The translations under genes and the position numbers were made by a program. DNA of 64,000 nucleotides from Vicugna vicugna (lineage: Eukaryota). Below are positions 29,092-55,705 of this stretch, in pieces. Position 1 is the stretch's first letter, and each line of letters starts with the position of its first letter. The stretch covers positions 4,343,579 to 4,407,578 of the forward strand of contig MU058198.1 in the NCBI GenBank assembly GCA_013265495.1. The letters run 5' to 3'. Below the pieces are notes generated by a model. The model was not told where the DNA came from. It saw only the letters and a program-made list of their open reading frames with translations, and did not search any database.

Positions 29092-32000
29092 GTACGATGA
29101 ATAGTGGCAAAAACAAATGTCTCATCCCGGTCCTAAGAAGAAATTCATTAGCAAAACACCACTGTCCAACTTTCACATGCAAAGAATTAGTCTCTAAACT
29201 AGAGGTCAAAGCACGTAGCCCAAGACCAGGGAAGCTTGAAGATGTATTTCTTTGGTCTACACAGTGTTTTTTCCTTTTCCTTTTAGTTGCCAACATTTAA
29301 ATATCAAGAAATCAGCATTCTGGAATATCATTAAACATGGGAAGATGCGACGCCACGGTACCCACATTCACTATGGCAACCAGCGGCTGGAGCAGAGAGC
29401 AATCATCCCCCTTAAATGAACATGTACTCACTAGTTCACTGCAGTCCTCACCATCCCATATTGTCTTACACCTATCTCCCACTTCACTTATTAATTTGAC
29501 TTGATCTGGCACTTGAGTTTGTGACCCCTGCTTACAGAATGTAATTGTGATTTCCAACTTTTTGGAAAATGGGAGACATTATGCACAGTAAAATTTCAGA
29601 CTCTCTCAAACAGGAATTTAAAAGGTCCATAATCCGTTATCCATCCTTTGAAACCTACAAAACAAAGCAAGTTTTTTTGGTAACTCATTTGGCAACAAAA
29701 TTGGACCTGAGTTAACATGAAGCTGTGTATAATCTTTATGGATTCTGTTTAGTGTGAAACACTATAGAAATATTGTGTATTTTGCTATAGAAATACTAAC
29801 ATGTTTGATTACGGGCTATTGCCCTAGACCCCACTGGAGAGATTATATAACAGCATGTGTGCAGTAAAACTTTCCTTTAAAATCTGAAAAAATCTGATTT
29901 CTGAAACTTATCTTACCCCAGAGGTTTTGGATAAAGGGCCATGTCGTGTTATACTTTTACTATCTACGTTTAAGAAAACACACACACACACTTGCAAAGC
30001 AGATAAGCGTGTAATAATATTTTTAAATGGATTTATACTTCATTCATTACAATGGTATCTGCCTACATTTGAGAAACATAAATAGAATGATCTATGCAAA
30101 ACCATCTGCAGTCTGACAAAAATGCCCAGTGCACATGCTGACTCTGGGCCCCTGTACCAGAGTGTTGAATCCCTTTGGGGGTAGGTGGGGTGGTCTGCTG
30201 TGTACACGCTGGGAATCACTGGCACACAGGTAATTCTATATTAGAGTAACATGCTGCCTCCACACTTGCTGTCTGGGTGAAAGTGATGCTACAGCTATAT
30301 GACCACATTCTTTTAGCATTCTTTTTGTCCCCAGTGAACAGTGAGTTTTCATTCACCTTTAAATACCCTGTTTGATATTCTAGGATTTCACAATATGTAA
30401 AGTACATAATCAGGCCCCGAAGATAAGATTCAGAAGAAGCTGCAAAGAAAGCAGATTCCTTTCCACCCTTGCTCTATGCTGAGGCCAGATGGAATCCACT
30501 CAGATAGACGCAAAGCCCAGCTTCTTCCCCTTTCTCGGAAATACTGTTTGGAGGAAATCAGTGTGAGTAAAATGAAGCAGCAGAGGTGAGGCATGTGGAA
30601 CATGATGCTGGCAGAAGTAAGGAAATGGTCTGGGATGTGTCATGGGAGAGAGAGACACTGACTCCATGTGGCACCAGAGGACATCTCGGGGGTGCGTGGG
30701 ACAGAGGTATTTTGACTCATCTTGAGAATTAGCACTGCCCAGGCGGAATGGAAAAAGGTCATCAGGGAGGGTCAGGGAAGAATGTCACAGAATAAAACAA
30801 GCCAGGAAGGGGCTGAGGGGAACTGGATGGCTAATGCCGCACCCGGACGGGACAGCTGCTACTCAGCCACCCCTACCTGGACTCAGGAGGACAGAGGCAC
30901 TGCAGGGTCCTCCAAGGTTTTAGATTTTAGAAGAAGCTGGAAATCCAGGCTTTTGTGTGAAAACTCCTCATTTTTAAATATGAGCCAATGGCTGTTAAAA
31001 ACAAATAAATACAGAGTAGGCCAAAGAGAACACGTCTGTGGCCTGCAAGCAGTGTGGGTCTTTGGTTGTCATAATTCACATATCCACACCCTGGAAGGAC
31101 TACAACAGAGTTTCTCAGCCTCAGGAGTCCTGGCATTTGGGACCAGATGATTCCGTGTTGTGAGGCTGTCAGGGGCACTGTGGGACGTTCAGCAGCCTCC
31201 CTGGCCTCTATCTCCCAGATGCCTGTAACAGCCCTCCCCCAACCAAGTCACAACAATCAAAAAATGTCTCCAGACATTGTCAAATGTCCCCTGGGGGGCA
31301 AAACCACACCTGGTAAGAGCCACTGGACTAGATCAACATCCAGCTCTCCACCTCCAGGACTTTATGAAAGCGCTGCTCATGACTCAAACAAGGGGTTCCT
31401 CATGTAAGACTTGCCCGCATGAAGTACGGAATTGTAGCTGCTTTGGAATCAGAAACTGGGGTGTGAAGGCACAGCTCTGTCATTTACTAGCTTGATGACC
31501 TCTCTGAGTTCCGGCTTCCTTATCCTTAAGTCAGGAACAAATAACATCACCTCTTAGAGCTGCTGCAAGAACGCAGTGAGGTAATTTATGCAAAGCACTG
31601 CGCCCCAGCAGCTTAACAGGCACCAAAGACCATTAATCCTCCCCTGGAGAAAAGGCAGCCCAGACTCTGCAGTCGGGAGCCCGCAGGATCCAGAGTCAGA
31701 AGCCCTGGGCCCAAGGCGTGCCCGGGCCACCTAGAAGCTGTGCGAACCTGGCAGGTCATTTCCCCTCCTTTATAAAACAGAAATGATAATCGCCAGTAGG
31801 TGAGAACCAAGCCGGCTGGTTTGGTTCAGCACTTGGTGCACGAAGCCAGCTGGAGCAATGTCAGTGATTAGTACCATCAAACCTTTCAAAGCTTTCTGTA
31901 AAGGGAAGAACGAGCTCTTCAACAAATCCCGAGACCCGAGAATGCAGTGACACTGGGGCAAGGCACAGGGGACACAAGAGTAATAACAACAGGGACCCTC

Positions 32001-35000
32001 AACCTCTAGGTCCTTCTAGACAAGCCGTTGCCAGCTGGTCACCCACAGGCCAACTCTGGCCACTGATGTGCTGCTTAGCCCCCTGTAGTGTCATGGTGAT
32101 TTAATTTGCATTAAATGCCATCTGACTTTCATTAAAATCCAGATTTCAGGCTTTTCTGCGAAACTACGAAGGTTGAGTCACATGGGGCCCATCCTGACAC
32201 ATGCCCCTTTGGTGAGGCAATAATCATGCGCTGGGTGAGGGGTGGCGGAGAGGCCCCCCAGACCTCACCTGGCCTAAGTCACTCATTTATTTTACCAGCC
32301 CAGACCCTTTAGGCATTTGAGTTTGTAGCTTTGGCTTTCTAAAGATAACTATCTGGGAAAGCATTTGAACCTCCAGGGCGTACTTCAAATAAGGCAGAAA
32401 CCAACACCCACTGAGACACTCCCTCCTGGGGCCTCACCTGGGTAATAGCTCTCTGGGTTAGGCCCTCAGATTCCTTTTCTCCTGGACACTTCAACCTCAT
32501 AACTAAACCATCCTCAAGCTCCTCACTCTGCGTACACCTTCCTCCGTTCAGGGCATCACCTCCCCCAAAATAACACATGTGTCCAGTGGATTATCTGCAT
32601 CAAGGATTTTCAGAAAACAAAATAGCTTTCTTTTTAACCAGACTACCAAGTACTCAACATGATGTTTCTGTCTCCTGACCGTACTCTGGTTTCCCTTGGG
32701 GTGCCTGTGCTCCCCGACTCTTAGTCCCGTGATTTAGGTGGGGTTAATGCTGTACCCATTTGCAGGCAAAAGCATGTGACCCAGGCAGAAGCACTCAGAG
32801 TCAGTCTTGGGGCTTTGGCAACAGTGCCTGGGAGGAAAGCGTTCTCTGTCCCTCTGGAACAGGAGCTGAGGAGGATGGACGATGGGGGCGGGGGAGTGGG
32901 GAGTGGGTCAAGCCTGTCTAAAGAGTGGAGCCTCTGGAAACAGCCCCAGTCTGCGGCCAAGCTCCTTCTGGATTCTCTTGGTCACATTTAATTCCCATCT
33001 TCATTTAAGGCAGTGAGAATTGGGTTTTCTTACAATCCAAAGAGACCTCATCAATACCAGAGAAATTTAAAAGATGTGCTTGAACATGGAAACAAAGCCA
33101 AGAGGCTTTGCTCAAATTTTCACCTGTCTTTTTGTTACCTCCCTCTATTCAATAAGAACTAACATTAAATTGTGCTGAACACTGGAATTTGACACAACAC
33201 TGTAAAATGATTATGAATCAATAAAAAATGTAAAAAAAAAAATAAGAACTAACATTAGCCATCCCTCTACAAGCATTTATCTCATGATATATAATTATTT
33301 CTTTGCTAACCTATCTCTTCCACAAATCTGTTGAGCTCCCTCGGGGCAGAAAGTGTGTCCTATTCACATTTGGCTCTTTAACGTCTTGCACGATGGCGCA
33401 CACTTTGGGCCGAACAAGTGTCTGTTGAATGCATGAATCTACGGAAGGCAGGGGGACAAAAGGACCCATCCTAATTCTCCTCTTTGTGACACGCATACCA
33501 GGAGACCACCTCATAAGCCTTGCCCCTGTGGTACACAAAGCGTCTTCTGAAACAGACTCACTGACCCACTGTAAATAAACTGCATCATGAGAACTCACTC
33601 CTTCCAGCCATTACTAATTCTCCCACGAGTCCATCCCATGGAACCTCGCCGCGGGGTTACCCACAAGGTGCTCATACTGGGAAGAAAATACTTCATTGCA
33701 AGATGCCACCTACAACTCTATGAATTGGTAGTACACACTATGCACAAGCCATTCACACATATAACTTCACTCATTATAACTGGGTTTTTTTGGGGAGAGG
33801 GAAGGACCCCTTCTTTGCTTTCTAGCCTTCATTTTGACCCAAATACATCCAGAATCCTGATTCTGATGCCTGGCAACCATTTGCTTCTGCCCAATAACAA
33901 TTGCAGGCTCCCTCCTGCCTCCATTTTCCCTCCCTAATCCTTTATAATTAATTAAGTAGAAGGAAATACAAATTTGTCTAAGAAATCAACAGCCGTAAAA
34001 CAACAGCTTCCCCACTAAAAACAGTTTTGACTTTAGGTGCATAATTGCCACACCCTTAATGCTCTGTAATAGCTGTCGCTTCCACTGCATCAAGCAATAA
34101 AGATTTTCAAACAGTCAAAGGTCAGGGCTGGAATTATACTCCTAGGATGAATCACAGCATTTACTCTATCCAATTCTCGTTTTCCCATACTTGGGCCCAC
34201 ACCACCAGGGCAATCGAGGAAGAACTGGATTTACACGAATTTAACAATATTTACTGAGCATCTACTATGTGATAAGAACCACAGCAGACTCTGGGAATCA
34301 AGAGAGAAAGTGTAAAAACTCTCAAAGCATTCATTCTAAGGGGGAACACTGGCAAGTAAAGACACAATTCCATTATGGAAAAACAGGAATTATGAAAGCA
34401 CCAAGGAGGGCACATCCAATCTATGTTGGAGCATCAGAGAGGCCTTTGAGAGACAGAGACCTTTATAGGGAGAACTGGAGAATGAACAGGAGGTGGCCTA
34501 GGGCAGATGCAGTGAAAGAGGCTTCCAACAGTTCCAGGTAGAGGCTAATTAATATGTAAGAAAGCACAGCCTCCTCTGGAAACTGAAAGGAGGCAAGTAT
34601 GGCTGGAATCTAAAAGTGTAAAGAGAGAAAAGACTACAGAGGAAGAAGGACCAACAGACACTGGACAGCTTTGGAGCTTTTAAAGCCTCTGAATTGTTTA
34701 AAAAAAAAAAATCAGTTGCCTGATACAAGATACAAACAGGCCAAAATAACTCTGACAAACGCATCTTGACATTGACTAAATATTGATTCCACCATGCATG
34801 TTACTGAGAACACTAAGGGGGTAGGAAACTGACAAGGAATTACCTTGTCATTCATTTACAGATTCTTGGTTGAAACATTAGCTGTCACTACCACTCTGTA
34901 TACTTTCCTCTCAAAATTATTTCTATCCTTTTCTCACAAATACCTGAAAAGCAGGCACTTCTAGGGTTTAGCAGATAGGGATTAACTCTGGAAATAGGAT

Positions 35001-35949
35001 AAATGCACACCAAGCTAATAGGGTGGGGGTATCAAAAAAATTAAACAACAGAACTAAGCAAAAAGTTGAGGGAAACGAAACAGTAAAAAGCAAATTTGGA
35101 AAACGCAGGAGGAAGTAAAAGTATTTTCATACACACACACAAAAAAAGAAGTGTCCCACGTGCTCTGGCCAAACCAAAGTCCCCCTTTGACTCAAGTGCT
35201 GAGAAAAGAAGCGAAAGCTGTAAAAAAAATTCCCACTTTCAGATCTCATCAGAAAATTAACAGCAAAATCGGTACCACAGAGCTAACTAGCCCTGGAAGA
35301 CCTTGAAATATTTGCTCCAGACAATATAGCACAGGACAGTCACCTCCAGAAGCTCTCCAAAGCACAAACCATTCCTCTGTTCCAACGGCCTGAACATCCA
35401 CAAACTCTGGTCTCTCCTGTCATTTCATGATGAATGCCAAGTTTCCCAAAGAAACTTAGAAAGGATGGGCTTCCAAACCCAAAGTGAGAAGACCTGTTAT
35501 TTTTTTTTTAAAAAAAGATCATTTCTTTTTTAACTGGCGCTAGGCATTTGCAGAATCCTTTTCTCCCACTTTCAAACTTCTAAATGTCAAGCACTCCAGC
35601 TCACATTCGCCCCTGGTTAGGAGACGGCACCACCTCTCAGCTGCCGCCTCAAAGAGCGTTCAGAAACTCGCTGGGCAGATCCACTGGGTTTTTACTAACC
35701 CTTTACTTTTTTTGCCAGCATGCACTTGTAAGCGAAAGCTTTGCCGCAGCGGGGCAACCCGGAAAGGCTGAGCATGCCGCCCCCCAAAACCCGGCAGCCT
35801 CGGACACAACACTCCTGGGAGGTGCAGCCCCAGGCGGCGGGGCTGGGCCGGCGGGATCTCCGGGCGGGGGGGTGGGGAGGAAGGGACAGAGGGCCGGTCC
35901 AGCGCCCTGAGGGCGATGCTCCGCCGGGCGGGGACGCGGGGCAGTGGGG

Positions 35950-35976
35950 NNNNNNNNNNNNNNNNNNNNNNNNNNN
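35950..35976. other. Assembly gap (27 N) in the GC-rich start of ARHGAP17 intron 1
   Basis: Run of N flanked by G-tracts. Confidence 0.99.
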
Positions 35977-36082
35977 GGGGCGGCCGGGCCCGAGAAGGAG
36001 CCGGCCCGACCCCCGCCCGCGGCGCCCGGCCCCCGGCCCCCGGCCCGCGCCTCCCCCCGCAGGCCCGGCGCGGCGCACTCGC

Positions 36083-36135
36083 CTGCCCACGGTCTGGTTG
36101 GCCAGCTGCTTCATGCGGTTGAACTGCTTCTTCAT
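36083..36135 (-). CDS. ARHGAP17: Rho GTPase-activating protein 17 (RICH1/Nadrin), coding exon 1 (53 nt)
   Basis: Reads MKKQFNRMKQLANQTVG(R), the ARHGAP17 N-terminus. Strong Kozak context gccgccATGa inside a CpG island. Ends at AG|GCGAGT (phase 2), compatible with exon 2. Confidence 0.95.
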
Positions 36136-36729
36136 GGCGGCGGCAGCGGCGGCCCGCGGGGCTCGGGCCGGGCAGGACAGGGGACGGCCTGGCGGCTCCT
36201 ACATCGCTTCCCAGCCGAGGCGGCAGCGGCGGCGGCAGCTCCCCAGGCCGGCGGCCCCGCCCTCGCCGCGTCACTTCCAGCGGCGCCGCCCGCCGGGCCG
36301 GCCGGGTCGGGTCCGACGAGGAGGGCCAGGCCCAGGGCAGAGGCCTGGCTGCGCGCCGCCCGGTCCTTCCCCCCGGGTCGCTCCCCGTGCCTCGCGAGGA
36401 GCGGCCGCTCGGGGCCTCGCGGCCCCCTAGGACCTCAGCGTGCTTCCGCTCAGCGATCACCCGCTCCAGTGTTGTTTAACTCCCTTCCCAGACTAGGTCT
36501 CAAGCACACGGTGAAAAAAGCAGACACAAAGAGAGTAGATGGTGCAACACCCCCGTCTATGGCGTCTGATAACCGCCAATATCCATCCGCAGGGCTAGAC
36601 ACCGAAGCCGGGCTTGCTGGGGAAGGAGGGCCGAGGTGGAACCAGAAAGGACACATGGGAGCTTTGGGGCAATGGAAGTGTTCAGTGTCTTTAACTAGCG
36701 CCGTGCTTAAGTGCATGTGGAAGTACTTT

Positions 36730-37111
36730 GGAGATGGCGCCTTCGGAGCCGCTGTCATGGTGGCCGGCATCCAAGCGGTTGGGATGGCATGTGACACTGG
36801 GAAAGTCAAGGAAGCTGGGGGAGAAGGGCCTAACCCCGGTGCTGGGAAGACGTGTGGACGGGCAGAAAGGCCCGAGGAGAGACAGGTCATTGGAGACAGG
36901 ACCTTCGTTAGGTCCCACACCAGGTCTGGGTGCTGCGAGGCAGGGTGGAGTGTTGAGGGGCTCCTGTGCTCCGCCGTTGCCTAGAAACCCCTCATTGTGA
37001 TTTGATTCTTAGCTTTGTGCTGGCTGCAATTCAGGGACAGTTCGCGGGATTGTCCGACTGTGCTGGACGCTTTTCGCGGAGCGGACCAGGTCAGTTCTAT
37101 GACCCGCAGCG
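36730..37111 (+). other. TRIP11-derived 5'UTR of the retrocopy (5' limit approximate)
   Basis: Segments gtcatggtggccggc..., gaaagtca...gctg and gagcggaccaggtc...cgcagcgATG resemble the recalled TRIP11 mRNA leader. Needs an alignment to confirm. Confidence 0.65.
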
Positions 37112-40100
37112 ATGTCCTCCTGGTTTAGTGGCCTTAGCTCCGGCCTAGGCCACTCCCTGGGGCAAGTGGGTGGTAGTGTAGCATCTTTCACTGGACACAT
37201 CACCAATGTGTTGAGGAAAGGAAGTGAAAAGGTAGAAGAACCTGAATCTGAGGCAAAGGAGGTTGAAGACTCTGAGTCGATTTTAAAATCAGAGAATGAG
37301 AGACTTAAAACTCTCTATAGTGATCTAGAGGAGAAGTATGAAGCCTCAGAGCTTCAAATAAGACAGCAGACTACTAGTTACAGACATCAATTACAACAGA
37401 AGGATGTAGATATCAAACTCCTTACAGCAAGACAGATAGCGCTAAAGGATCAACTGCTGAAGCTGCAGTCAGTCTTGCTGTCAGTAGACCCTGAAGCTGG
37501 CTCTGTACCCCCAGTCACATTACCACCTCCACTGGGTTATGATATCAATGACCATGCTTTAGCTTTCCAGAATAATGATATGGACTTTGCTGACCTAATT
37601 TGGTCACAACAAGAAATAAATAGATTGTCAAATAAAGTCTTAAGACTTGAGGCTGATGTCAACCACTGGAGACACACTGCCAAAAAGTTCACAGCGCAGG
37701 GAGCAGAGAGCTTTGACCAAAATGAAATCTGCAAACTGCAAACTACCATCAAGGAACTTGAACAGAATCGATACAAGGAAATTGATGACCATCAACTTGA
37801 AATAGTGACAATGCAGAATGTTCATCAACAGAAACTGGCAGAAGTAAGTCACAGCCATCGACAGAAATGTAGAGACTATGAAGAAAGGATTGGAGAACTG
37901 GAAAATCTGTTACTGCAGGGGGGCTCCAGAATTGGACCAACTCATGAATTTCAAATTCATGACATGCAGGAAGCTATTCAAATTCTACAAGCTGAAAAGG
38001 AAGAGTCCACCAAGAAAATCAAAGAACTTGAGGATAGAATGAAATACATGAATGGAAAATCATCTTCTGTAGAGAGTGAAAGAGATGTTTTAAGGAGGGA
38101 ACAAGACCGGATAAATGAAGAAACTAAGGAAAGAACTGAAGAGGGTGAATTGCAACCTTACGTTATGAAGCAGAGCGATGCCGTGACAGCAAAGGAACGA
38201 GTGCTTCCACCAAGTACATCAATGGAGGAAGTGTTCAAAGAGCAGCAAGCGCTGTCGGATGCTGAAAATGAACCAATGAGACTGAGCAGCTTAAACCAGG
38301 ATAACGATGTCATCGAACACAACCTGAAACTTCAGGAACGAGTCCAAGTTCTAGAAAAAGAAAATTCACAGCTAAGTCAAGAAAAGGAAGAACTTCAACG
38401 ATCACTTGTCAAATTGAGCAATGATTATGAAGTAATTAAAAGCACAGCTACAAGAGACATCAATTCTGGTTCAGAAGGACATGATTTGAGATGTGACTTG
38501 GAACTCAAGGAAGGACAACTCAACCAGAGGGTTACTAAGAAGGAATTACTGACACCTGAGTTAGGAGAGTTGGACGAGAAGAAACAAGAAACTGCAGAGC
38601 ATGTGGTTTTGATGAAAGATCAGCGATCAGAACAACAAAATGAAGGAGATAGTGTCATCCAAAAACTAAAGCAAGAGCTTGAGGAAGAAAAAAGGAGAGT
38701 CCGCCAACTTGAAGATGATCAGATGAACATTACTAAAGAGTTGGATATGCAAAAAAAAAGGTTAATTCAAAGTGAATTAGCTGCTAATGATTTGCTTTTA
38801 ACCAAGCAGAAGCTTGAGGACAAAGTAGAAGATTTATTACATCAGCTAAACCAGTCACAAGACTGTAATGTCGACATCCAGAAAGAGAACTGTCAACTTA
38901 AGGAAGTTATTAAAGAAAACGAGAAGGAACTTTCAAGAATCAAGAATGAATTCGCTCAGTCTCTTAATCAAGACACTAATGTGAAGGTTGACTCACTTAA
39001 AGAACAGGAGGCTGAAGTTAGAAACTTAAGGCAAAATCTTTCCAAAATGCAAAAGCTCAATGTCAACTTAAGCAAAGTGGCTTTTGATCTCAAAATGGAA
39101 AATGAAAAGTTGGTTTTGGCACTTGAAGATGTAAGACGTCAGTGGGAAGAATCTATTGTTGGTAACACTCAGAAATCTCTGGGGAAAAACACTCCAGTGG
39201 AGGCTTTAAAAATGGAAAAAGGACAGTCAGAAGCAGAATTGTGTCAGGCTGAAAAGAGGCTGTTGGAAGAAACGAGGAAGAACGAGCAAATGATTGAAGA
39301 ATTGTCAAATACACGTCACCCAGATAGCTCTGCCTTACACCTGGAGCAGGAGTGTTTAATGCAACTCAGTCAAGAGAAAGATTCAGAAATAGCAGAACTC
39401 AAGAATATTGAGCAGATAATTGCTGATCATAAAGAAACTCAGGCAATGTTGTCATCTCGTTTAGAAGAGCAGGAGCAATTGAAACAACTTATAGAAGAGA
39501 AAGAAATTTTTCTTGGAAAACTGCAAGGAAGTTCAGATCCTTGGGAGGAATTAGATAAATATACTCAAGGCTTAAGAAAAATGAAACTGTTACAGCAAAC
39601 CATCGAAGAAGAAGACACAAGTCTTGCATCCATGAAAGAAGAAAATAGTCATCTGAAAGAGGAATTGGAACGACTGAGAGAACACAGTCAAACCGAATCT
39701 ACTATTAACTCTAACATGCCAGACACTATTACGGATCTACCATCTGAGAGCTCTCCATCAAGTGTCATGAAAGGCAACCTTAAGGAGAAAATAAAATATG
39801 ATCAAAAGATAACTGAAGATCAAAACCAGACTAAGATGCAAAAGCGTCAGTCTTTACAAGAGCAGAAACAGGAAATGGATGGTCTTCAAAGCCAACAGGA
39901 GCAAATGAATATTAAACACACTCAGCTCTTTACAGCCAGAGGGGAGGAGACTGAGAATTTACAAAATGCAATTGAACAAATCAAAACCCAGTTACCCGAA
40001 AAATCCCAGCACATGCCAACAGAACATTCGGGTGTTTTTCATGTAACAAAAATTCAGAGTCTTAATATAGAAAACGGAACTGAAAAGCATGACTTATCTA

Positions 40101-42877
40101 AAGCTGAAGCCGAAAGATTAGTAGAAGGACTAAAAGAACAAAAATTAGAGATTCAACTTCTAACTGAAAAGAATATCTGTTTAATTGAACAGATTGATCA
40201 GCTCTCCAAAAGTGAGGTTGGTAAACTAACCCAGCTTATCCAGCAGAAAGACTTGGAGATACAGTGTCTTCATACCAAAATATCTTCAGCTTCCTACACC
40301 CAAGACGAGGGGTGTCTTCAGCAGCAACTGCAAACGTATGCCTTGGAAAGAGAACAAATACTAGCTGTTTTAGATGAGAAGATTAAGGAAAATAGCCTTC
40401 TTAAAAGGGAAAACTTCAGAATGGTGGATATCATTATGGGCAAAGAGGCAGATCTTGAGAAGCTCCGAGATGCAAATATGAAACTACCCCCTAGAGCTGA
40501 AAGCTGTGATCAAGATATGTGTCGAGAAACTATTCAGAATTTATCCCACATCATTCGAGAAAGAGACATTGAAATGGATGCACTGAGTCAGAAATGTCAG
40601 ACATTATTGATGGTTCTGCAGAATTCCAGCAGTGGTAATGAGGTTAATGGTGTTAACATTAATCAGTTTGAGGAGCTTCTATGGGAACGTGAGCAATTAA
40701 AACAGCAGGTTTTGATAATGGAAGAATGGAAACAGCACGTGGAGGCCACGGTACAAAATATGCAGCGTGGGTCAACCCATCTTCAGAACGAGCTTCAACA
40801 ACTTCAGGCCCGGGTTTTAATGGACAGTGATATTAAATCTCAACTACACATGAGCTATACTGACCTGATCAAAAATTACGAAGAGAACAAAATCCAACTC
40901 AAAAACTTGGAGATACAAGTTGCACAAATGCAGCTCAGCCTAGAGCAGCTTTGCAATGCCAAGGCTCTTCTACTAGGGAAACCTGAACTCACCTTACCGC
41001 AGCCCTCCACCGAATCACCTCCTTCCGAGTCACCTGCCTCTCTTGAGGCAGTTAAGTCTGATGGATCCAGTGAGTCTTCAAAGTTGCTCCAAGAAGAGAT
41101 ACAAGAGTTAAGAAAATCAACAGAGGAAAAAGATGCAACAATTAGAACCCTCCAGGAGGATAACCAGAGACTGTCTGAGTCCATTGCAGCCGCCTCAGAA
41201 CTCGACAGAAAACAACATGAAGAAAGGGATTCCAAACTTCAGCAGCTCCAGGAGAAACAGGATGACTTACAAAACTTACTCCAAGAAAAAGAGCTCTTAC
41301 TCAAAGCGAAAAGTGATGAATTACTTTCTTTAAGTGAAGACTTCACTAATGAAGTGAGTGAAAATGATATTTTGAGGCAGGCGGTAATTAACCTGAAGGA
41401 GAGAGTCACCAGTTTGGAAGTGGATATGCATAAACTCAAAGAGGCAAATGAAAAAATAGTAGAAACATGGAGGGAAAAGGAAACAGAAAATCAAGCGTTA
41501 CAAGAGACAAACATGCGGCTTTCTATGATGCGGAGAGAGGAACAGTTGAAATTTGCGGCCATGAAGGAAAAAGCTCTTGCCTTGGAGCACCTACTGAAAG
41601 AAAATGAACAAGGCAAGAGTGGGGAATTAAATCAACTTTTGTATGCAGTGACATCAATGCAAGAAAAGACACTTATTTTTCAACAGGAGAGAGATGAAGT
41701 CATGTTGGCACTGAAACAGAAACAGATGGAAAACTGTGCCCTCCAGAGTGAGGTTCAACATTTACACGACAAAGAACTACGTTTGAAGCAGGAGCTAGAG
41801 CGAGCCCATCGCCTGGCTTTGGAATCCAAAGAGTCTCATAACCGCGAAGCTTTAGCTGCAGAAGACAGAGCAGCTAAACTCAGAATGAAAGCGAAGGCAT
41901 TGGAGGAAAAGCTCCTTCTGTCTTCTAATGCAATGGAAGATGCACGCCAACAAGCCCGCTTGCGGATGGAGTCATTGAAGGAACAACTGAATGTTGTCAC
42001 CAGGCAAAAAGATGACATTTTGCAACAGCTTTGTGCGTCCCAAGAACAAGAAAAGCAGTATGCACAAGCACTAGCTAATCTGAAGATGGAACTTGCTGAA
42101 TGGATGGAAAAGGCAGACGATCTAGAAGGGAAACTGCAGAAGGCTAAAGCTGTGTTGAATCTGAAGGAAGAAGAAATTAAAGTTTTGACAAAACAAAGTG
42201 AGGTTCAACGGGAAGTGCTAGATGATGTGCAAAGAAAACTGCTGGACTTAGTAAGTAAAGCAGAAGAAAAAGTCGACAAAAGCTTAGTGAGGAAGCTCTT
42301 GATGGAGTATTTTCAAACACCCAAACCTCAACGCCATGAAGTGTTAGAACTACTCAGAAACACTCTGGGCATTAAAAAGGAAGAAATGGAGCTGGTTTTT
42401 AAGGAAGAGCAAGGTGGTGGTACCAGATGGATGGCTAGGTGGCTTGGGTCGAAGAGTGTCCCCAACACACCTCCGAGACCAAATGAACAATTTATGCCTA
42501 AGAATTCTTTTTCAGAACTTTTTGTTCAATTTCTAGAAACAGAATCTCACTCTACTGGTCTACCATCAAAAGCCTCTACTGAAGATACAAAGACTCCCAG
42601 TTCACCGGGAAGGAGACAACAAGCTACAAGTGTCCCGCCAAGTCTTACAACGACACTAAGAGCTGCACCCAAAACACCCAGTGTGAATCACTGCTCCACT
42701 GCTGTTTCACTTATTAACCCACCTGGACCTACAACCGATGGATCGGAGCATCTTCTTTTAAATGCTGTTACTGATGTTCTGCCCACATATGCACCTTTGC
42801 TGCTGTCACCTGGCAAGAGCGCTGGAGTTGTGCCAAAAGATCTCTCAAAGCAACAGATGCTTCTTCAGCCGAGATGA
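37112..42877 (+). CDS. Intronless TRIP11 (GMAP-210 golgin)-like retrogene, 1921 aa, intact ORF
   Basis: N-terminus [30 protein letters not shown] resembles TRIP11 [30 protein letters not shown]. Long E/Q/K/L coiled coil. GRAB-like [29 protein letters not shown] and [15 protein letters not shown], with a C-terminal [10 protein letters not shown]. Single exon, whereas parental TRIP11 is multi-exon. This is not the TRIP11 locus itself. Confidence 0.93.
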
Positions 42878-42976
42878 GACAGTCCTAAAGAAACTGATCA
42901 CTACATTTGTGTACCTCACCACAACATGGCCTTAAAAAAATAAGGCCATGTATTTGTTTTCAGTTTTACTTTGTTT

Positions 42977-43004
42977 AATAAAAATATTAATACTTAAAAA
43001 AAAA
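42977..43004 (+). terminator. Polyadenylation signal AATAAA (42977-42982) and residual genomic A-tract (42996-43004) of the retrocopy
   Basis: AATAAA about 100 nt after the stop, followed 13 nt later by A9. This is the arrangement expected for a processed mRNA insertion. Confidence 0.75.
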
Positions 43005-45084
43005 GGTGTGTTGTAAGGACTTAGAAGATATTCACCAAACTTAAAACAGTGGTTAGTTACTCTCCGTGAGAATGGGCTTTGGTGGGATGGGTGGCTGTGG
43101 TCAAAGGATACTTCAAATATTGTTTGTAAAGCTTTAATTTTTTTGTTGCAAAGACCAGGTATCTATGCATACCTCGGGTAATTAAAACATTAACTTGTGT
43201 TAATGCTCAAAATTATGGTAGACACACAGGTGCACTCCTTGGATAAGAAAAAAGGCAAACAGCACAAAAGTACAAGATGCCTAAAATTTTCAAAAATGGA
43301 AGTTCAGTCCTCCTGGCTAAATCCCAGTCCTCTTTCCATTGCCTGGAAAACCATTCCATTGGTAGCCTGTACCCTCTCAGGCCTTTTAGAAATATATGTA
43401 TATTTGTATATATGGAAGTATATTATTCTGACTTGCTTTTAAAAAAAGAAAATCACTACACTTTAGCAATCCTTCCAAAGGTGAATGAATTTCATCTTGT
43501 TCTTTTTTAAAACAGCAGTTTGTAGTGTGGAGGTACCCTACTGTACCCTAACTTATTTAACTAGTTCCTATTGATCAGCATTTAATAAAACCATCAAATG
43601 GCCATGGCCAACTCCCTTGCCCATCTCAAGAGCCACTCCAGAGCTTCATTGCTTTCCTGAATTACGATCGTGCCCTCGATACTAGAGGCCAGAAATCAAG
43701 AACCCTCAATTTCCCACACCTGCTTCCTACGTTCAACCATCCATTTCTCTCCATTCACCTCTGCTCTTTCCCTTTTGTTTCAGAGGACAAGGGGTCCAGC
43801 TTTGCAGCTGACGTCTCATGGCTCCTTTGTACCCTGGAAACTATCCATTCAGACTTCGTCAAAGACCTCATTCCACTAATTTTCCATTCTGCTTTATTTT
43901 TAGTCGTCTCTTTCCCTGAACATAAGAGCCTGCCAAAGCCTCTGTCAGCAAACCATCCTCTTTCCTGCTCCTTCAGGTACCACCTTCTCTCTCTACTTCT
44001 CACAGCTGAGCTTCTGAAAAAAATTCTTCACTCCTTGTCACCATCTCATTTCTCACTGATTTCTTTTTGAAAGCTCCACAAAATCTTGTCTCAATGCCCC
44101 CTAATTTCCTGATGCATTAGAAATTCATCTTTTTAGTTACTTAAGCTCTCTGTAGCATCAGATAAACGTTATACCCATATTTATTCTTTAACATTCTCTC
44201 CACCTTCTTTCTTTTGGGGTGCCACTCTCCTTAGATTCCCTTCCCGACATTAGGTGCTTTTCTCCCTGCTTCCTTTGCAACGTCTTCGGACCACTTCATA
44301 AGTGGGCATGTTCTCTGAGGGGCCATCTTCAGCTAAATGGATCTTCTCCCTCTCACTGTAGGCACAGGGCAGCTCATCCACTCCCATGACTGGACATTCA
44401 CCTGGATGCCAGGGACTTCTGAATGCCTCTGTCTAACCTCACCCTTCTCCTAACTCCACCCTGATTTATCTGCTTGTCTGCTGGATGTCTGTGGGCTTCT
44501 CAAAAGTCTGAAAGGGAACTCAGCATGTGCCCTTAGAACCCTCCTCCTCCTCCTCTGTCCCTTTTATCTTCTAATAAAACCTCTGTGCATCTTGTCACCC
44601 AGGCAGGAGGCGTCAAAGCCATGGTTGATCTCCCTGACTCGCCCACTCCATAGCCAATCAACTACCAGATAGACCTTACTTCCTTCCCTTCCTTTCTGCT
44701 CCCATGGCTCTGATACATCCTTTCCTGCCTCTTCCATGGGCTAGTACAGTGGACTCCTCCCTAATCTTGGTGGTTCCACTCTCGAGCTCCCTTGGATCCA
44801 TTTTGCATGCTGCTGTGAGGGTGAAATTTGTAAGGTGAAGATCTGATGTTACTTTCCTGCTGTAAATTACTTCAGGTTCCACATTACCCGGAGTCCACAC
44901 TTGAAAAGAATAACCAAGGCCTTGCCTGTGTAGCCTTACTTCCTGCTTGTCCCCCACATGTGGACCACCTTCCAGCCACGTGAGACTTCTTGCAAACACG
45001 AATGGACTCTTACCCAAATAGCTGTGAGCCCATGAGGCCAATCATAGCAGGGTAATGCCTTCCACAAAGTGCAGATCAGAAGAG

Positions 45085-47828
45085 TTTGATTGATCTCCTC
45101 TTCACTTGTTGGTGGGGAGGGAATTCCCACCCTAAAGCTGTGGGGAGGGGCTAAACACTGAACAGGTGAGTCTCACAGCAGGTTATTAGTCATACAGACT
45201 CACGGTCTAGGGAGTGGAGGACATGGGGACACCAGGCAGGGCCACACGGAGGTTGCACTTGGGAACAGAGTGACCCAGCAGGGGCTCTCGGGGGCAGACT
45301 TAGGAGTAACAAGAGGGTGGAAGTGACTCTGTTGTCCACTGGAGGGTGTGACTGGCTTGTTTGAATAATTTCACAGGCTGGCAGGGAACTGGAGGCAGCT
45401 ACCTGGGAATAAACTGTGCCTGGTCCTGGTGATAAGAAGGGTAGTTTGGCTCGGGGACCTGATCTATAGGAGCAGAAGGGGAAGGGAGTTTGAAGTTAGA
45501 CCATTTGAAGCCCTCCTGTTTCAACAGATGTCAAGGCAATCCTTAAGCTTGAATCTTGATTTCAGGGTTAATACCACAATGGGTTCTTTGATACCTTGAT
45601 ATCAATTTAAACCCTGGTGATGACTGAGACTTTTAGGGAATAGGAGGAGTCCTTCCCTAGGAAGTGATGTTGCCACTTGACCAAGAGGGAGAGGTGATCA
45701 TCCACAACATAAAGCGTATGGACTCTTTCCTATTGATGTTCACGCAGTTGACCCCAAGGGGTCTGGGGGAGGGGGTGACGTCCTCCAGCACCACAGCATC
45801 TGGCAATGAACTGAGGATGGGAGGCCAACCCCACCTACAGGTGGGATGGGCCAGAGGGCTCCTGTTTGGTTTCACCCTGTAGCAGGGAGGCCTTTAGGAC
45901 CACACTGACCTTGTGGGATGTCGCTTCCATGGCTCAAGGACTAACAGGGCGCTGAGTATGGACGCTCAGGGGCTGTGAGAGACTCTATTTCCAGAGAAGC
46001 CCAGTGTATGGCCAGCAATTCCTGCTCTAATCGTATGTGATTCAGGCCCAGGGAGGGCAGTTTCTTGCATCAGAAGCCCCCGGGCAACTTACGGACATCA
46101 TAAGTGGTCCAGAGACGCCAGGAAGCACAGGAGGATGTTGCTAAATCCTCTTCACTGAGAGGAGCGCCGGTTGATTTTAATTTAAACAGACTCTAGAGTC
46201 CTTTGTCGGTCGGGCTCCCACTCAAGGTGGGCTAATTTCAAAGTGACGGCATAAATGGGCTTAAACACAATCTGTAAACAAGGAGCACGTTGCCTGCAGA
46301 GCCCCAGAAGGACTCAAAGATGTCGGATACGATTGTATGTCCTTTACAAATGTTTCAAATAAATGACCTCAAAGGAGGATGTCATCAAGGTGATGTCATA
46401 CCTGTCATCCTGGAGAAGGGTGGATGCAGCGACGATCCTGTCTGCAAAGATCGTCTGTGACAGCAGAGCTGCTAGGTATCCTGTGGGTAACTAGGTAGAA
46501 GAGTATTGTGCCCCTTTGGAGAGAAGGCCAACTGGCCGAGAGGAGGTTGAAGTAGACGATGCTGGTAAGGTGACTTTGTCCATGGCCTGGGTCAGGCCCC
46601 CAAGCCCCTGATGACCAAATCAGTCCTCTGGTGTGCTGGTAAGCACCTACAGGAAGCAAAGCCCACATGTATTGATTAGGGGTTTTGCACTGAGAGAGCA
46701 GTTGAATATCAAGGCCCCTTCCCCCAACTTTTTGTTTCATCAGTTCCTTGGCCATGGGCTGTCATGGATGTGCACCTCAGTACCTTTAGGGATCAGGAGA
46801 GCTCACGACAGCAGCAAGGGAAGCAGCAGCACAGGACACACAGCACAAGGAGTCATCCCCAGGACGGTGCTGGGCCAGGGGCACTTTCCCAAACACAGTC
46901 TCTGTGGCTGCCCCAGTGGCGGCCATCAGGCTGGACACAGTGACCAAAGTGCTAGTCCCACACCCAGCAGGTGGAAGTCAAGCACCCACTAGTTAGGGCA
47001 TCGTGTTGTCCCTGGTCTCAGGTAGGAGCCTCGGAGTCCACCTGCCAGGCACAAGCCACAGCTGATGGTACGTTAACTCCGGGATATAGTCAATGTACAA
47101 TAGTTTTCGCCTAGTTGGCGAGAATGAGACGTGAGGATGGGAAGAGATGGCAACATCCGTTGGAGACAACAGAATGTGAGCTAAAGCCCAGGCGGGTCAG
47201 CAAGTGGCACTTACATCCCAGGCAGTAACCGCTGCCTTACGAACCAGTTACCTAGCAAAGGAGCGGGTAGTTAAGGCTGGCCCGGTATCCTCAGGTGAGG
47301 TTAGACCATCCTGTTCATGATGCCAGTTTTTTTCACTCACTTCTTCTTTAATCCACTGGTGAGTAGAGATTCCTAGCCTAGACTAACAGGGCCGACTGAA
47401 CACACAACACTCGACACCACACAGAAGGGACGAACAGCAGTTTACTAGTCTCACAGACCGGGGGAGGACACCACACCGCACGCAGGGCCACACGGAGGGT
47501 GGCACTTCAGAGCAGAGTGAACACGTAGGGGCTTAGGAGGCAGATTTTGTAGTAACAAGAGGGTGGGGGTGAGCCCTGGTTTTGGCAGGAGGGTGTGATG
47601 GGCTTGTGTGAATAATTCCATGGGCTGACAGGGAACTGAAGCCTGCTGCTCAGGAATAAGCAGGCACTGGGTCTGGTCCCTGTGAGAAGGGTCATATTAC
47701 TAGGGGACCTTGTGTATGGGAGAGGAGGGGGTGGGGAACTGTACTTGGGCCATTTGAGGTCCTCTCAGTTTTTCCAGATGCCAAGACAGCTCTCAATATT
47801 GAATCTTAACTTCAAGCCTCATACCACA
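45085..47828 (-). mobile_element. Degenerate ERVL-class endogenous retrovirus relic: two related LTRs (about 45085-45578 and 47328-47828), tRNA-Ser PBS and pol remnant
   Basis: The two ~500 bp blocks share motifs gcagggccacacggagg, gtaacaagagggtgg, tgaataatt, ccatttga and ataccaca. PBS-like TGGCATCATGAACAGGAT at 47325-47308. Minus-strand peptide LEQELLAIHWASLEIESLT at about 46030-45974. Confidence 0.7.
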
Positions 47829-47829
47829 A

Positions 47830-48500
47830 GAAACTATTAAAAAGTAATTCTTCCTAGAACTAATCATTGAGTTCAATAAAGTCACAGGATACAAAATAAA
47901 CACAAAAATCAAGTGTATTTCTAGATACTAGCAGTGACCATGTGGACACCAAAATTTAAACTATGTGTATAATTGCAAATAAAAATAAAACACATGTGTA
48001 AATCTAACAAAACATGCCCAGGACTAGTATACTGACAACTATACTGACAACTAGTATACTGACAACTAACTGATAAAAGAAATCAATGATCCAAATAAGT
48101 GGAGAAAAAGACCATGGTCATGAATGGGAAGACTAAGTATGGGAAAGACGTCAATTTTCCCCAAATGGATAGATTTAATGCACTTCCTATCAAACCCAGT
48201 AGGAATTTTTTTGTAGGTATAGACAAGATTGTTCTAAAACTTGTATGGAAAGATAAAGGAACAAGAATAGCTAAAACAATTTTGAAGGAAGTACTATGTG
48301 GGAGCAACCGTCTACCAGCTTCAAAACTTATCATATAGCTGCAGCCACCAAGACTGTATAGTCTTGGCCGAGGGCTAGACGCGTAGATCAATGAACAGAG
48401 AGACCCAGAAACAGTCCCACACAAATATGCTCAGTTGATTTTTGACAAAGGTGCAGAAGCAATTCAAAGGAGGAAAGACAGCCTTTTCAACAGGTTATAG
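47830..48500 (+). mobile_element. Degenerate L1 ORF2 fragment
   Basis: Peptide FPQMDRFNALPIKPSRNFFVGIDKIVLKLVWKDKGTRIAKTILK is typical of L1 ORF2p downstream of the RT domain. Interrupted by stops. Confidence 0.85.
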
Positions 48501-50584
48501 CAATGGAAAGCTTGTGAGGAAACTGCACGCCAAAAACTTGGAAAACAGGACCAGCAAAGAAGGAAGATAATGATTTCACTGGGGGTACTGCCAGGTGGTG
48601 ATGGGAGGGGAGGGATAATGTGCACTCAGAGCAGGATGAAAGCTGCAAGTGCTGGGTAACGGTTTATTGCATCTTTCTGAATTCAGCTGCTTCTGATTGA
48701 TCAGCTCCACAGGCTCCGATGATTTTCCCATCAGCCCCCACACTACAAACTCAGGTCACCCCCCTAGCTGAGTATCCAGTGCTCCAGACTCCATTAGCCT
48801 TCTCATTAGCATCATTCTCAGGCTATCTGAGGTAGCAAGGTGCATCTCAGGGACTCCAAAGATACATCCTCTCAGGTTCAAGTCTGCCAGAAAAGAGAGC
48901 TCTTCTAGACTTAGCAACTCCCATTCAACTCCTGATTTGACCCATCTGGTCACCAATCCACTGCCCCTCTCTCCCCCCTCCCCTCCCCCACCCCTGCTAC
49001 ACTACTGAAGTGTAACTAGAGTGATTTTGGGTGTGATTGACCAGGCCTTGGTAAGGTTCCACACCGCAATGTGAGGCATGGAACCTTACCTGATCCACAT
49101 GGACTAAAAGGAGAGTTTAGTTCTCCATAATAAACTCTGGCTGTTGTTATAGAAGAAATAATGCCTAGTCAAAACAGCAAATGTCCACTCTGGCCACTCA
49201 CAGAGAAATTTCATGGTTAATGCTCAGCTTTTTGTTTCCAATACTAGTTAATGTTCACAGGGAATTTAAACTCTAGTTTCTCGTCTCTTGACTTTATCAG
49301 AGGATGCAGATTTAGTTGACAGTGACCTTTGTCTGATTGGGACCCCAAAGTAGTCTCATATTTTGAGACATCATGTGGCTTGAGATGGGTAAGCTTTCCA
49401 TTTCCAGATTCCACTCCTGTATCATAAAGTTCCAGCCCCTTGTTTAATGGAGCTTAAAAGGAATGAGCTGGCCTTGCCTGATGGAAGCTTTTGGGGTGAA
49501 AAACTGACCAAAGTTCTCTGAATCATCAGCTTCTCTGAATCAGAGGCTCAGTAAAAATTAGAAGTAGTCTTTGCTCATGAAATAACAAGTGTATCAACAC
49601 ATCTGCCTCCACCTTTTCCCAGTCACCCTCAGCTTCACCATCCAGACCTATGGGATTGACACTTTATACTGCTTGCTGTTGACACATTACCCATTAACAC
49701 TCTTGGAACGTGTACACTGCCAAGCTGGTTTGCATTACCCTCTTGGCAGAGGACCATTCAGAGAAAGCGGTGTATTTCACCTCATCACCTCTCCCCCTGG
49801 CAAAACTCCCTAACTTCAGCCTTCCCCACTTTCATTTCTACTTTGGGTATCAATGAGCTCTTGTTCCTTCACTGGATACTAAGCAAGCATTTGATACCTG
49901 ATCTTGCCCCAAGATATGTGTACTGGATTTTTGTTGCTGTTTGTTCATCTTGCTTATGTTTGTGTATGATCCAAAGTTCTTAAAGTTTGAGTATATCCAT
50001 TCCTTGATCCTGACTGATAATGAAATGGAATATGCAAACACACTTTAAATAATCTACTTAGAAAATGTCTTACAGTAAGTCTAGTACAAAATATATGTAA
50101 TGAACATCTTGAATTGACATAATAATGAAACAAACACGTGAACCTACCCCAGCTTGAGAAATATTGAGGAGTCCATGTGCTCCTTCCCCATTCCCTTTCC
50201 CCCTAGTCTTCTACCCTCCCCACCCCCTAAAGGTCACAAATGTCCTGATTCCTATTTTCCCCCTCATTTCATTACTTTCCTGTATATTTGTTTACCATAT
50301 ATGTGTGTTTTCCTAAATAATATTAGTTTTGCTTGGGTTGAACTTTACAAAAATGTTGTATTTCTTCTTTCACTGAATATTATGTGTTCGAAATTCAGCC
50401 ATTGATATTTGTAACTGGTTACTCTAGTTCATTAATTTTCACTGCTACATAGTTCTCCATTGTATTAGCTTTCCACACATACCTTCTTTCACAGCGTTTC
50501 AAAAGCGATCCTGTGTGCCAAGTTCTTCACCCAGTTCCTGCCACAGAGACGACACTCAATATATATTTGTTCAATAGCTGACTG

Positions 50585-50740
50585 AGGAGGGAGGGTATAG
50601 CTCAAGTGGTAGAGCAGCATGCTTAGCATGCACGAGGTCCTGAGTTCAATCCCTAGTACCTCCTCTAAAAATAAATAAGTAAACCTAATTACCGCCCCCC
50701 AAAACAAACAGAAAACAACTAACAAAATTCTGTTTTAAAA
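50585..50740 (+). mobile_element. tRNA-derived SINE (Vic-1-like) just upstream of the LCMT1 promoter
   Basis: ggagggtatagctcaagtggtagagc...gagttcaatccctagtacc. TSD aatag(c/t)tga(c/a)tga. Confidence 0.87.
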
Positions 50741-50879
50741 AATAGTTGAATGAGACTGAGTTCTAACTGAAACACTGATACTTGTTTCCTCCGGCTTCTC
50801 TGCCCTTCGCTCCAGTGCTGAGACTCCTGCCAGCTCTTCTGCCCTGAGTTAATTACAGTTATACAATTTCTTGACCAGC

Positions 50880-51590
<711 letters not shown>

Positions 51591-54064: not shown

Positions 54065-54410
54065 TTTTTAATATTCTATTTTTTTATTGAAGTATAGTGA
54101 GTGTACAGTGTTGTGTCAATTTCTGGGGGTACAGCATAATGTCTCAGTCATACACATACATACATATATTCCTTTTTATATTCTTTTTCATTATAGGTTA
54201 CTGCAAGATACTGAATAGAGTTCCCCGTGCTGTACAGTAGAAACTTGTTTATCTCTTTTATATCTAGTAGTATCTGCAAATCCTGAACTCCCAGTTTATC
54301 CCTTCCCACCCCCTTTCCCCTCCTGGTGACCATAAGTTTGTTTCCTATGTCTGTGAGTCTGTGTCTGTGAATAAGTTCCTTTGTGTCTTTCTTTTTATCC
54401 CAGTTATAAG
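54065..54410 (-). mobile_element. L1 3' end (artiodactyl-type), antisense in LCMT1 intron 1
   Basis: tttttattgaagtatagtg...gaatagagttccccgtgctgtacagtag...ggtgaccataagtttgtttcctatgtctgtgagtctg. tgataactctt is repeated on both flanks. Confidence 0.8.
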
Positions 54411-55705
54411 TGAATACAGCGATAACTCTTGACTTAGAACTCTTCTGATTGGATATACTAGTAGGTTTATGCCTGGTAATACCATTTGACTTAACAGTTA
54501 TCTATACAGTGCTTACGATAGCTGACTCTCCCCCCTCCCCATTCCCCTTCTTATTTTCCGCACCATTCAGTGCCCCACATCAGTTACCCACTCTCTTGTT
54601 TATCCTTGCCCCCCCAGCCCCTCCAGCCACCCCCACTGTGTCCTCTGAAGCCACCCCTCCACAGTCACCAGCTGCCTCCATTTGCTCAGCCTCCCCTCAG
54701 CTATTCCCTCCCTCTCTTTGCCTTGAGCTTAGGGAGATCCTTCACTTAAAGCCCTCTCAAGTCACAGCTCGGTTTTCTCATACCCTGGATGTCTCAGGAT
54801 CAGGAGGTTCAAAATTTGTGTCCCCACTGCTCTTTGTTCCCTCACCACACTTCTTCGAGACCCATGTCCCCTGCACCCTCTCCTCCTCCACGTGATTGTT
54901 TTCTGCCTGCTGCTGGTTATTCACCTACCTTGTTGAAGACTTGGCACCTGGCCCACAGGCCTTCCTCCCTGCCTCAGTTCTTGCCATCATCCTTGGTGTG
55001 CGTGTGGAGGACCCAGCTACACACAGGGCGCTCTTTCCTTTAACACCTTGTCTGCGGTGGTTACCTCTTCTTGTCCACCTGTCACCATTCCTGCCACGAT
55101 ACCCTGCATTTCCATCCAGGTGCTGTACCGCCTCACAGCCCCACCCTCCAACCCCAGTCTCTTCTTTCCAGCCAGCTTGGTCAGTTATTTCTCATCCACC
55201 GTCAGCGTCTTTCTCCTCGGGACCTCCATGGTTTTCTCTAGCCTGGAGAGACTTCCTTGAGGCTGTTCCCTCTCAGTTGAGCTTAGAGTTCATAGTCCAT
55301 CCTTCTGTAATTCTCTTGGCAATGCCTTTGTCTCCCTTGCCCTTCATCCTAGTAAACCCCATACCATGGTGGGACCAGATTATCCACTTTCACCTTGAAT
55401 ACTGGTGGGGGAAATCACACAGCCTGGCACGGCCAGGTGCCGCTGTGCATTCACAGCAACCAGCTTCACCTGCATCCTTTCTAGTATGAGTGTCTGGTCA
55501 ACAACTCACTTTCTCACTCTCCGCAATACTTAAATCAGACATTTTCCACTTTCCGAAAGCTTCTGATTTACTCCACCCTGTTTCATCTTCAAGATAACAG
55601 GATGATATTATGGGTATTGCTTAACATAGAAAATAGATGCCTTCCGATTGGCACACCTTTAACTTCCCTCCAGGAAACTCAACCATCCTTTCCTACTGCT
55701 TCAGT

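Follow-up and report, generated by a model that had tools for sequence, protein, structure and literature searches.

An old intronless copy of TRIP11 (GMAP-210) with a selected reading frame in a duplicated block of the Vicugna vicugna genome

GMAP-210, the golgin encoded by TRIP11, has been studied as a single-copy essential protein, mostly in human and mouse. Its first 38 residues capture vesicles through an ALPS motif and an M-S-W-L/F motif, Trp4 of the latter being required for one vesicle class; Rab2 binds at residues 1017-1195 and 1325-1599, IFT20 binds at residues 1157-1319, and the GRAB domain is the anchor (PMC5267433, PMC4310744, PMC2602600, PMC2744908; the N-terminal motif definitions used below are those of PMC5267433 and PMC2744908). 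The present work concerns an intronless copy of TRIP11 in a stretch of 64,000 nucleotides of the Vicugna vicugna genome (assembly GCA_013265495.1, contig MU058198.1, positions 4,343,579 to 4,407,578), referred to as the window. The explanation that we favour as a whole, with a rough probability of 0.55, is that this copy is a retrogene under selection which encodes a GMAP-210-like tether and is used mainly in the male germ line.

A single stop-free frame of 5,766 nucleotides runs on the plus strand from an ATG at 37112 to a TGA at 42877 and encodes 1,921 residues. As the original prediction had described, it is followed by AATAAA (42977) and a tract of nine A. The parent, which was expected to be a multi-exon gene at another locus, was found in the same genome as 21 exons on contig C11764 (G000:C11764), and 1,973 of the 1,977 residues of its product are those of alpaca RefSeq TRIP11. 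The insert consists of the following parts, where TSD stands for target-site duplication, UTR for untranslated region and ORF for open reading frame; insertions and deletions are called indels.

36709..36733, plus strand: decayed 5′ copy of a candidate TSD of about 25 nucleotides; weak, p 0.027 within the window copy
36734..37111, plus strand: retroposed TRIP11 5′ region (parent -403 to -1); 68-74% identity, 6-9 indels that are not multiples of three
37112..42877, plus strand: intronless TRIP11/GMAP-210-like ORF of 1,921 residues; intact, ancestral stop read through
42878..43004, plus strand: 3′UTR derived from the parent by homology, with AATAAA at 42977 and the A-tract at 42996-43004
43004..43027, plus strand: decayed 3′ copy of the TSD; weak repeat to 36709..36733

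Compared with the parent, the ORF is 62.9% identical at the protein and 74.5% at the DNA level. A search of the genome with the ORF gave at least 16 matches: the ORF itself, a second copy without introns on contig C945, and 14 matches of exon size on C11764. Eighteen of the 20 parental exon junctions are crossed contiguously by the retrocopy, and the other two lie within junction-spanning deletions. Since homology to the parent extends from 36734 to the parent's proximal polyadenylation signal, stopping about 20 nucleotides past AATAAA, 36730-43004 is taken as the insert, and both of its UTRs derive from the parent. The repeat 36709-36733 versus 43004-43027 has a shuffle p of 0.027 within either copy and of 0.0015 and 0.30 in the cross-copy pairings. 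The insert is confirmed as a retrocopy of TRIP11/GMAP-210 of the LINE-1 (L1) type, with all 20 parental introns gone. The predicted old age of the insertion also stood: a young copy is ruled out by the 74.5% nucleotide identity and by a dS to the parent of 0.47-0.83.

The ancestral stop has been lost in the window copy only (TAG to CAG at 42854), which adds seven residues up to 42877; the camel proteins and the C945 copy terminate there. An independent-looking extension across the same 3′UTR is seen in a hippo protein. Three upstream ATGs at 36734-36789 open frames of 66-88 codons within the retroposed 5′ region; a transcription start near 36970 would exclude them. The exact window protein has no entry in the protein collection searched, the camel protein has no match among the solved structures, and the ESM Atlas search gave TRIP11/GRIP clusters only.

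In camelids the frame of the gene is strictly selected and its amino acid sequence weakly selected. Relative to the parent, the ORF contains 17-18 indels, all of them multiples of three, at gap penalties of -12 and -16; at a penalty of -8, 8 of 29 are not, and the out-of-frame runs do not exceed 11 nucleotides. In the UTRs of the same insert, 10 of 13-14 indels are not multiples of three. The ORFs of the window copy (copy A) and of the C945 copy (copy B) differ by 5.0%, and all five indels between them are in frame, compared with 87 indels not divisible by three in 15,294 aligned nucleotides of the flanks (four blocks, 7.6% divergence). From the flanks, 32.5 frameshifts are expected between the two ORFs (21 if scaled to substitutions), and none is observed. 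This lack of frameshifts, together with the in-frame indels against the parent, indicates that the frame is under selection. Neutral drift simulated at 5% introduced about 13 stops, and 0 of 200 runs remained open. The A/B dN/dS is 0.67 (confidence interval 0.53-0.84) at kappa 4 and 0.45-0.73 over kappa 1-6. The earlier argument that a neutral copy would carry lesions, and that an intact frame therefore suggests function, is supported by the simulation and by this ratio below 1. In a three-taxon codon model, whose split between the A and B branches depends on a distant outgroup, omega is 0.41 on the copy A branch (2dL, twice the log-likelihood difference, 9.7), and omega = 1 is rejected on the two branches jointly (2dL 16.5). 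We have little doubt that the retrocopy is a selected protein-coding gene in camelids. A pseudogene or RNA-level element, whose frame survived by chance or by gene conversion among copies, would fit the many broken or short relatives, the omega of about 0.9 on branch B and the presence of conversion tracts. It is nevertheless very improbable in view of 0 frameshifts against 21-32 expected, 0 stops against about 13 expected and exclusively in-frame indels at 25% nucleotide divergence from the parent; moreover, if both copies were neutral, conversion would be as likely to pass a lesion on as to erase it.

The retrogene lies in a block that is duplicated in this genome, with the following features around the insert.

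31209..64000, plus strand: left part of a duplicated unit of about 56 kb; about 90% identity, head-to-tail, in G000:C945
35700..36500, no strand: CpG island around the first exon of the head-to-head neighbour; GC 73%, CpG observed/expected 0.86
36083..36135, minus strand: first coding exon of the head-to-head neighbour, presumably ARHGAP17; stop in copy B
51267..51377, plus strand: LCMT1 exon 1; intact in the window, stop in the duplicate

The unit spans 31,209-87,594 in extended window coordinates, about 23.6 kb beyond the window. The unplaced 54-kb contig C945 is a circular permutation of it, and its head-to-tail junction is at 29,360. This arrangement points to a collapsed tandem array of copy B, in which the 5′ parts of ARHGAP17 and LCMT1 are pseudogenised. 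In the duplicate, the first exons on the ARHGAP17 and LCMT1 sides each carry stops, and the copy B ORF is intact (C945:36550-42291, 1,913 residues). The expectation of a single second gene thus did not hold, as the block is duplicated here and multiplied elsewhere. The size, unplaced status and permuted order of C945 could also be those of a haplotig, in which case copy B would be an assembly artefact and only one gene would exist. This is barely credible: the divergence of 5-10% is far beyond allelic, the end of contig C2824 (1171800-1172915) is 100% identical to the region upstream of copy B, and copy B groups with a dromedary B-type record, from which it follows that the A/B duplication would be older than the camel-llama split; the contig given for that record equals in length the one given for an A-type record. 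The same identity rules out C2824 as an empty pre-insertion site; its segment 1164700-1166900 is unrelated, and the contig end may be another partial copy or mark where the array ends.

Of the two predicted neighbours, LCMT1 was verified by a match of its exon 1 (51267) to human LCMT1 in PDB (E 2.8e-8). The minus-strand exon ending at 36135 is one that we take to be ARHGAP17; one identity test gave no match. The BAR and LCM family searches did not detect the neighbours' short exons. In both copies, a GC instead of a GT donor follows the neighbour's first exon (36077-36082, minus strand), possibly marking a GC-AG intron. An 82% match to this exon at C12393:1579311-1579400 probably belongs to a paralogous RhoGAP gene, which we assume to be ARHGAP44. 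A 27-base N gap (35950-35976) lies in the neighbour's GC-rich first intron, outside the retrogene, and a 2.3-kb tandem duplication of 98.9% identity within LCMT1 (60873-65438, extended coordinates) is either recent or an assembly artefact.

Relatives of the retrogene were drawn from the matches listed, among which 10 picked matches were named, and counts of their range are lower bounds. Three Camelus species have RefSeq "TRIP11-like" models of 1,912 residues (94% identical), and the hippo has eight near-identical proteins (seven of 1,763 and one of 1,573 residues), all assigned to a contig of one length. Further members come from rhino (1,344 residues), elephant seal (1,308), fox (1,896), several felids (511-952), horse (541), donkey (456), mole (1,282) and desman (1,144). 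The original prediction was to be refuted by routinely disrupted orthologues; those of Camelus are full-length, and members outside the camelids are usually shortened, fragmentary or multiplied, which goes part of the way towards such a refutation. All 20 retro rows fall into a single clade with support 1.00 in a tree built from 53 hand-picked rows, and the branching inside it is broadly that of the species; IQ-TREE on 21 rows agrees (SH-aLRT, a Shimodaira-Hasegawa-like approximate likelihood ratio test, 100). Two deletions define the clade.

42094..42137, plus strand: site of the 22-residue and 10-residue deletions (plus 7 residues in camelids); parental exon junctions 14 and 15 removed

They are found in 15 of 15 retro rows that cover the site and in none of 25 TRIP11 rows. 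The predicted narrow restriction to one lineage was not upheld, as the clade extends across Laurasiatheria and is apparently older than Boreoeutheria. An origin in camelids only is rejected by the approximately unbiased (AU) test (p 1.5e-5). With the caveat of long branches, an origin on the Laurasiatheria stem is likewise rejected under LG+G4 (AU p 2e-4), and a position of the retro clade as sister to all Boreoeutheria is not (AU p 0.145). Thirteen Laurasiatheria-diagnostic sites were scored in the retro clade (nine non-laurasiatherian, two derived and two uninformative), and at 18 sites that split Boreoeutheria the state is that of Atlantogenata in 11, boreoeutherian in four and tied in three. 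Fragments P0284 and P0320 combine both deletions with an ancestral motif that is gone from the laurasiatherian members, and P0332 combines a retro-type tail with that motif; all three are placed outside the laurasiatherian clade with weak support. From these sequences we infer an origin before the radiation of Boreoeutheria, about 90 million years ago or more on the usual dates. Root-to-tip distances are about 0.4-0.9 in the retro clade against 0.06-0.15 in TRIP11, a rate 5-9 times that of TRIP11. A conversion tract near residues 783-878 is visible in two camel species.

The rhino probably has the same block arrangement, because the N-terminal extension of its protein reads through a diverged antisense first exon of the neighbour and the retro 5′ region; the match to the antisense first exon (36080) scores 57, and the best of 100 shuffles scored 51. 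Matches of the rhino and fox N-terminal extensions at window positions 805 and 21907 were set aside as what we take to be probable repeats. None of the named full-length members among the matches listed belongs to pig, ruminants, whales, bats, primates or rodents, which does not imply absence from these groups. The TRIP11-like proteins of squirrels and colugos were rejected as orthologues: they lack both deletions and nest with the TRIP11 of their own species. They represent independent amplifications in ground squirrels, marmots and colugos (P0092, P0148-P0183, P0204, P0200), and TRIP11 appears to have been duplicated repeatedly in mammals. Many felid-type N-terminal ORFs of 952-965 residues (P0149, P0152-P0171, P0416-P0426) end before RBD1 and GRAB and are possibly a conserved truncated product.

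The regions of GMAP-210 with known functions were located in the window protein.

37112..37213, plus strand: MSSWF motif and ALPS-like N-terminus; Trp4 kept, four-residue deletion at the motif end
40523..41011, plus strand: counterpart of the segment of GMAP-210 (1157-1319) that binds IFT20; overlaps the end of RBD1; 65% identical, boundaries approximate
42260..42388, plus strand: candidate GRAB domain (PF10375); E 2e-4, 21.4 bits, cut-off 26

The protein is collinear with the rod of the parent along its whole length, with 29 rod prolines compared with 14 in the parent. Its first 36 residues include 17 G/S/T and two charged residues, with a hydrophobic moment similar to that of the parent; Trp4, the ALPS composition and the hydrophobic moment are retained in camelid, hippo and rhino. 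The ALPS region is 74% identical to that of chimp TRIP11, and the window protein keeps 513 of 687 columns (75%) that do not vary in TRIP11, compared with 697 of 1219 (57%) of those that do. In the ALPS, RBD1, IFT20 and GRAB regions the parent is 92-97% identical to chimp TRIP11, and 94-97% in the last three of them. The earlier appeal to IFT20 anchoring proved weak: with the coordinates of the site applied approximately from mouse numbering, its 65% identity to chimp TRIP11 is about the protein average, compared with 97% for the parent. GRAB scores 29.0 bits in copy B, 26.1 in dromedary and 27.0 in the parent, compared with 15.7-25.9 bits or nothing in the other six retro proteins scanned; the window copy, hippo, rhino, seal, mole and one further record are below the threshold, and none was detected in donkey. 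Judged from the sequence, both ends of the protein (MSWF/ALPS and GRAB) persist in camelids, and the product is probably a tether-like golgin. It is considerably less plausible that a protein is made which does not tether; it would then serve as a coiled-coil with a structural role or as a modulator, either by pairing with GMAP-210 or by competing for the partners of GMAP-210. Such a role would explain why half-length versions are tolerated, different halves being kept per lineage (many felid N-terminal ORFs of 952-960 residues, equid C-terminal pieces of 456-541 residues), and would suit the weak GRAB scores outside camelids and the doubled rod prolines. The camelid, hippo and rhino records retain both ends including Trp4, though, and the short records could stem from broken copies or from incomplete gene models.

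Two features upstream of the ORF bear on its expression.

36971..37111, plus strand: conserved proximal element, candidate carried-along promoter and 5′UTR; 5 of 141 nucleotides differ between A and B, 11 of 11 CpG kept
36976..36988, plus strand: X-box-like (RFX) motif with an overlapping MYB-like hexamer; also in copy B and the parent

The conservation of 36971-37111 has a p of 0.04 against the flank rate; in 36053-36970, A and B diverge by 13-21% and 36 of 79 CpG are left. The X-box-like pattern, for which as for the MYB motif we assume the consensus, was chosen after the site had been seen; it matches once in the window and also in 11 of 100 shuffles. The CpG island has decayed in copy B (observed/expected 0.40, from 93 to 35 CpG) and the 141-nucleotide element has been preserved, which suggests a candidate promoter that was carried along and does not depend on the island. 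Seven of 24 listed public runs, on record as RNA, contain 25-33% of the words of the region (two studies), in which an intronless gene may be matched as DNA. Three of those listed are labelled "reproductive system metagenome"; the runs are not used as evidence of expression or tissue. Use mainly in the germ line is somewhat favoured. A germ-cell knockout of GMAP-210 has reportedly been made since 2019; it was not found in the literature search. Single-exon retrogenes tend to testis-specific expression, and spermatogenesis is sensitive to the loss of golgins (PMC4772013, PMC6611411). GMAP-210 is found on pro-acrosomal vesicles, its requirement there being untested as of 2019 (PMC6611411), and PMC12123824 only restates the IFT20 link. 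We regard as unlikely the alternative that the ARHGAP17 CpG island is a bidirectional promoter from which the gene is broadly expressed, as a backup or dosage copy of GMAP-210. The insert starts about 600 nucleotides from the start codon of the neighbour and adjoins the intact island; CpG-island promoters are broader and old retrogenes broaden with age (PMC4772013), and broad expression has a precedent in the LCORL retrocopies of equids (PMC10249811). A rate 5-9 times the parental one and relaxation of the most constrained regions are unlike a backup, and copy B kept its ORF after losing the island.

Taken together, a germ-line tether retrogene could have arisen as follows. L1 copied the TRIP11 mRNA, and the copy was inserted head-to-head with ARHGAP17, probably in an early placental mammal, carrying about 400 nucleotides of the parental 5′ region along. 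In camelids it is shown to have become a protein-coding gene, one whose frame is selected strictly and whose sequence is selected weakly. The product would be a long coiled-coil rod whose GRAB end sits on the Golgi membrane and whose MSWF/ALPS end captures small vesicles; judging from the retained motifs, contacts with IFT20 and Rab2 may have loosened. It would most likely act in the male germ line, where it could for instance tether pro-acrosomal vesicles, and its expression would be driven by the carried-along proximal element, not by the ARHGAP17 CpG island. Repeated duplication of the carrier block would result in birth-and-death evolution.

Several observations weigh against this explanation. 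The copy B branch alone is indistinguishable from neutral (omega 0.92, 2dL 0.08), and the dromedary B-type record is a gapped model of 668 residues. Compared with chimp TRIP11, the window protein is 70% identical in RBD1, 65% in the IFT20 site and 55% in GRAB; GRAB falls under the Pfam cut-off in 6 of the 8 retro proteins scanned, and the rod has twice the prolines of the parent (29 against 14). The felid records stop near 950-960 residues without GRAB and the equid records have no N-terminus, so that no one full architecture is conserved across the retro clade. The conservation of the proximal element could be due to gene conversion, as elsewhere in the family. Finally, CpG-island retrocopy promoters, like old retrogenes, tend to broad expression (PMC4772013).

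A wider reading is tentative at best: a second, germ-line GMAP-210 family of Laurasiatheria, lost or left to decay in primates and rodents, would tune the capture of pro-acrosomal vesicles under sperm competition or germ-line conflict. Such a golgin would be autosomal, evolve fast and be amplified time and again, and each lineage would have its own length and ends, with full length in camelids, eight near-identical proteins in hippo, the ALPS half only in cats and the GRAB half only in horses. If so, these would be natural mini-GMAP variants. Camels, hippos, horses, cats, dogs, seals and moles together offer a natural series of length and domain variants of this second copy, whose age is roughly that of placentals. 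With it one can test which golgin parts are important (ALPS, rod length, Rab2, IFT20, GRAB) and what makes spermatogenesis so sensitive to golgins. The recurrently amplified ARHGAP17-retrogene-LCMT1 block also varies in copy number, and in livestock and pets this can mislead read mapping and the annotation of TRIP11.

No paper describing a TRIP11 retrogene family was found in a search that covered neither supplements nor most subscription journals. Among the matches listed, TRIP11, ARHGAP17 and LCMT1 did not occur together and golgin and retrogene terms were not joined; "receptor-interacting protein 11-like" led only to an unrelated ant paper. TRIP11 is absent from the main text of the equid and canine retrocopy papers, whose supplementary retrocopy tables could list the locus. 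The family already exists as automatic annotation, and a duplicated retrogene is a known kind of gene; its parent, age and breadth appear to be new. The RefSeq "thyroid receptor-interacting protein 11-like" models XP_064334229.1, XP_057605502.1 and XP_058424851.1 are members of the retro clade, and the "TRIP11-like" label also mixes in the independent squirrel and colugo duplicates.

The closest known system is TRIP11/GMAP-210 itself, with which the retrogene product is collinear throughout at 63% identity and shares the MSWF/Trp4 motif, the ALPS-like start, the RBD and IFT20 segments and a GRAB that scores below the cut-off in the window protein. Unlike TRIP11, the retrogene is intronless, lies at another locus, evolves 5-9 times faster, has the 22- and 10-residue deletions before GRAB, is relaxed in the parent's most conserved binding regions and varies in copy number. 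Like equid LCORL and elephant TP53, it is an L1 retrocopy that segmental duplication has multiplied along with portions of adjacent genes (PMC10249811). The LCORL retrocopies are dated to 18 million years and occur in equids only, and those of TP53 are truncated (PMC10249811), whereas the TRIP11 retrogene is far older, occurs in several orders and maintains a frame of about 1,900 residues in camelids. It also resembles the "out of testis" retrogenes of mammals in its single exon, its relaxed constraint and a promoter that may have been carried along or recruited (PMC4772013).

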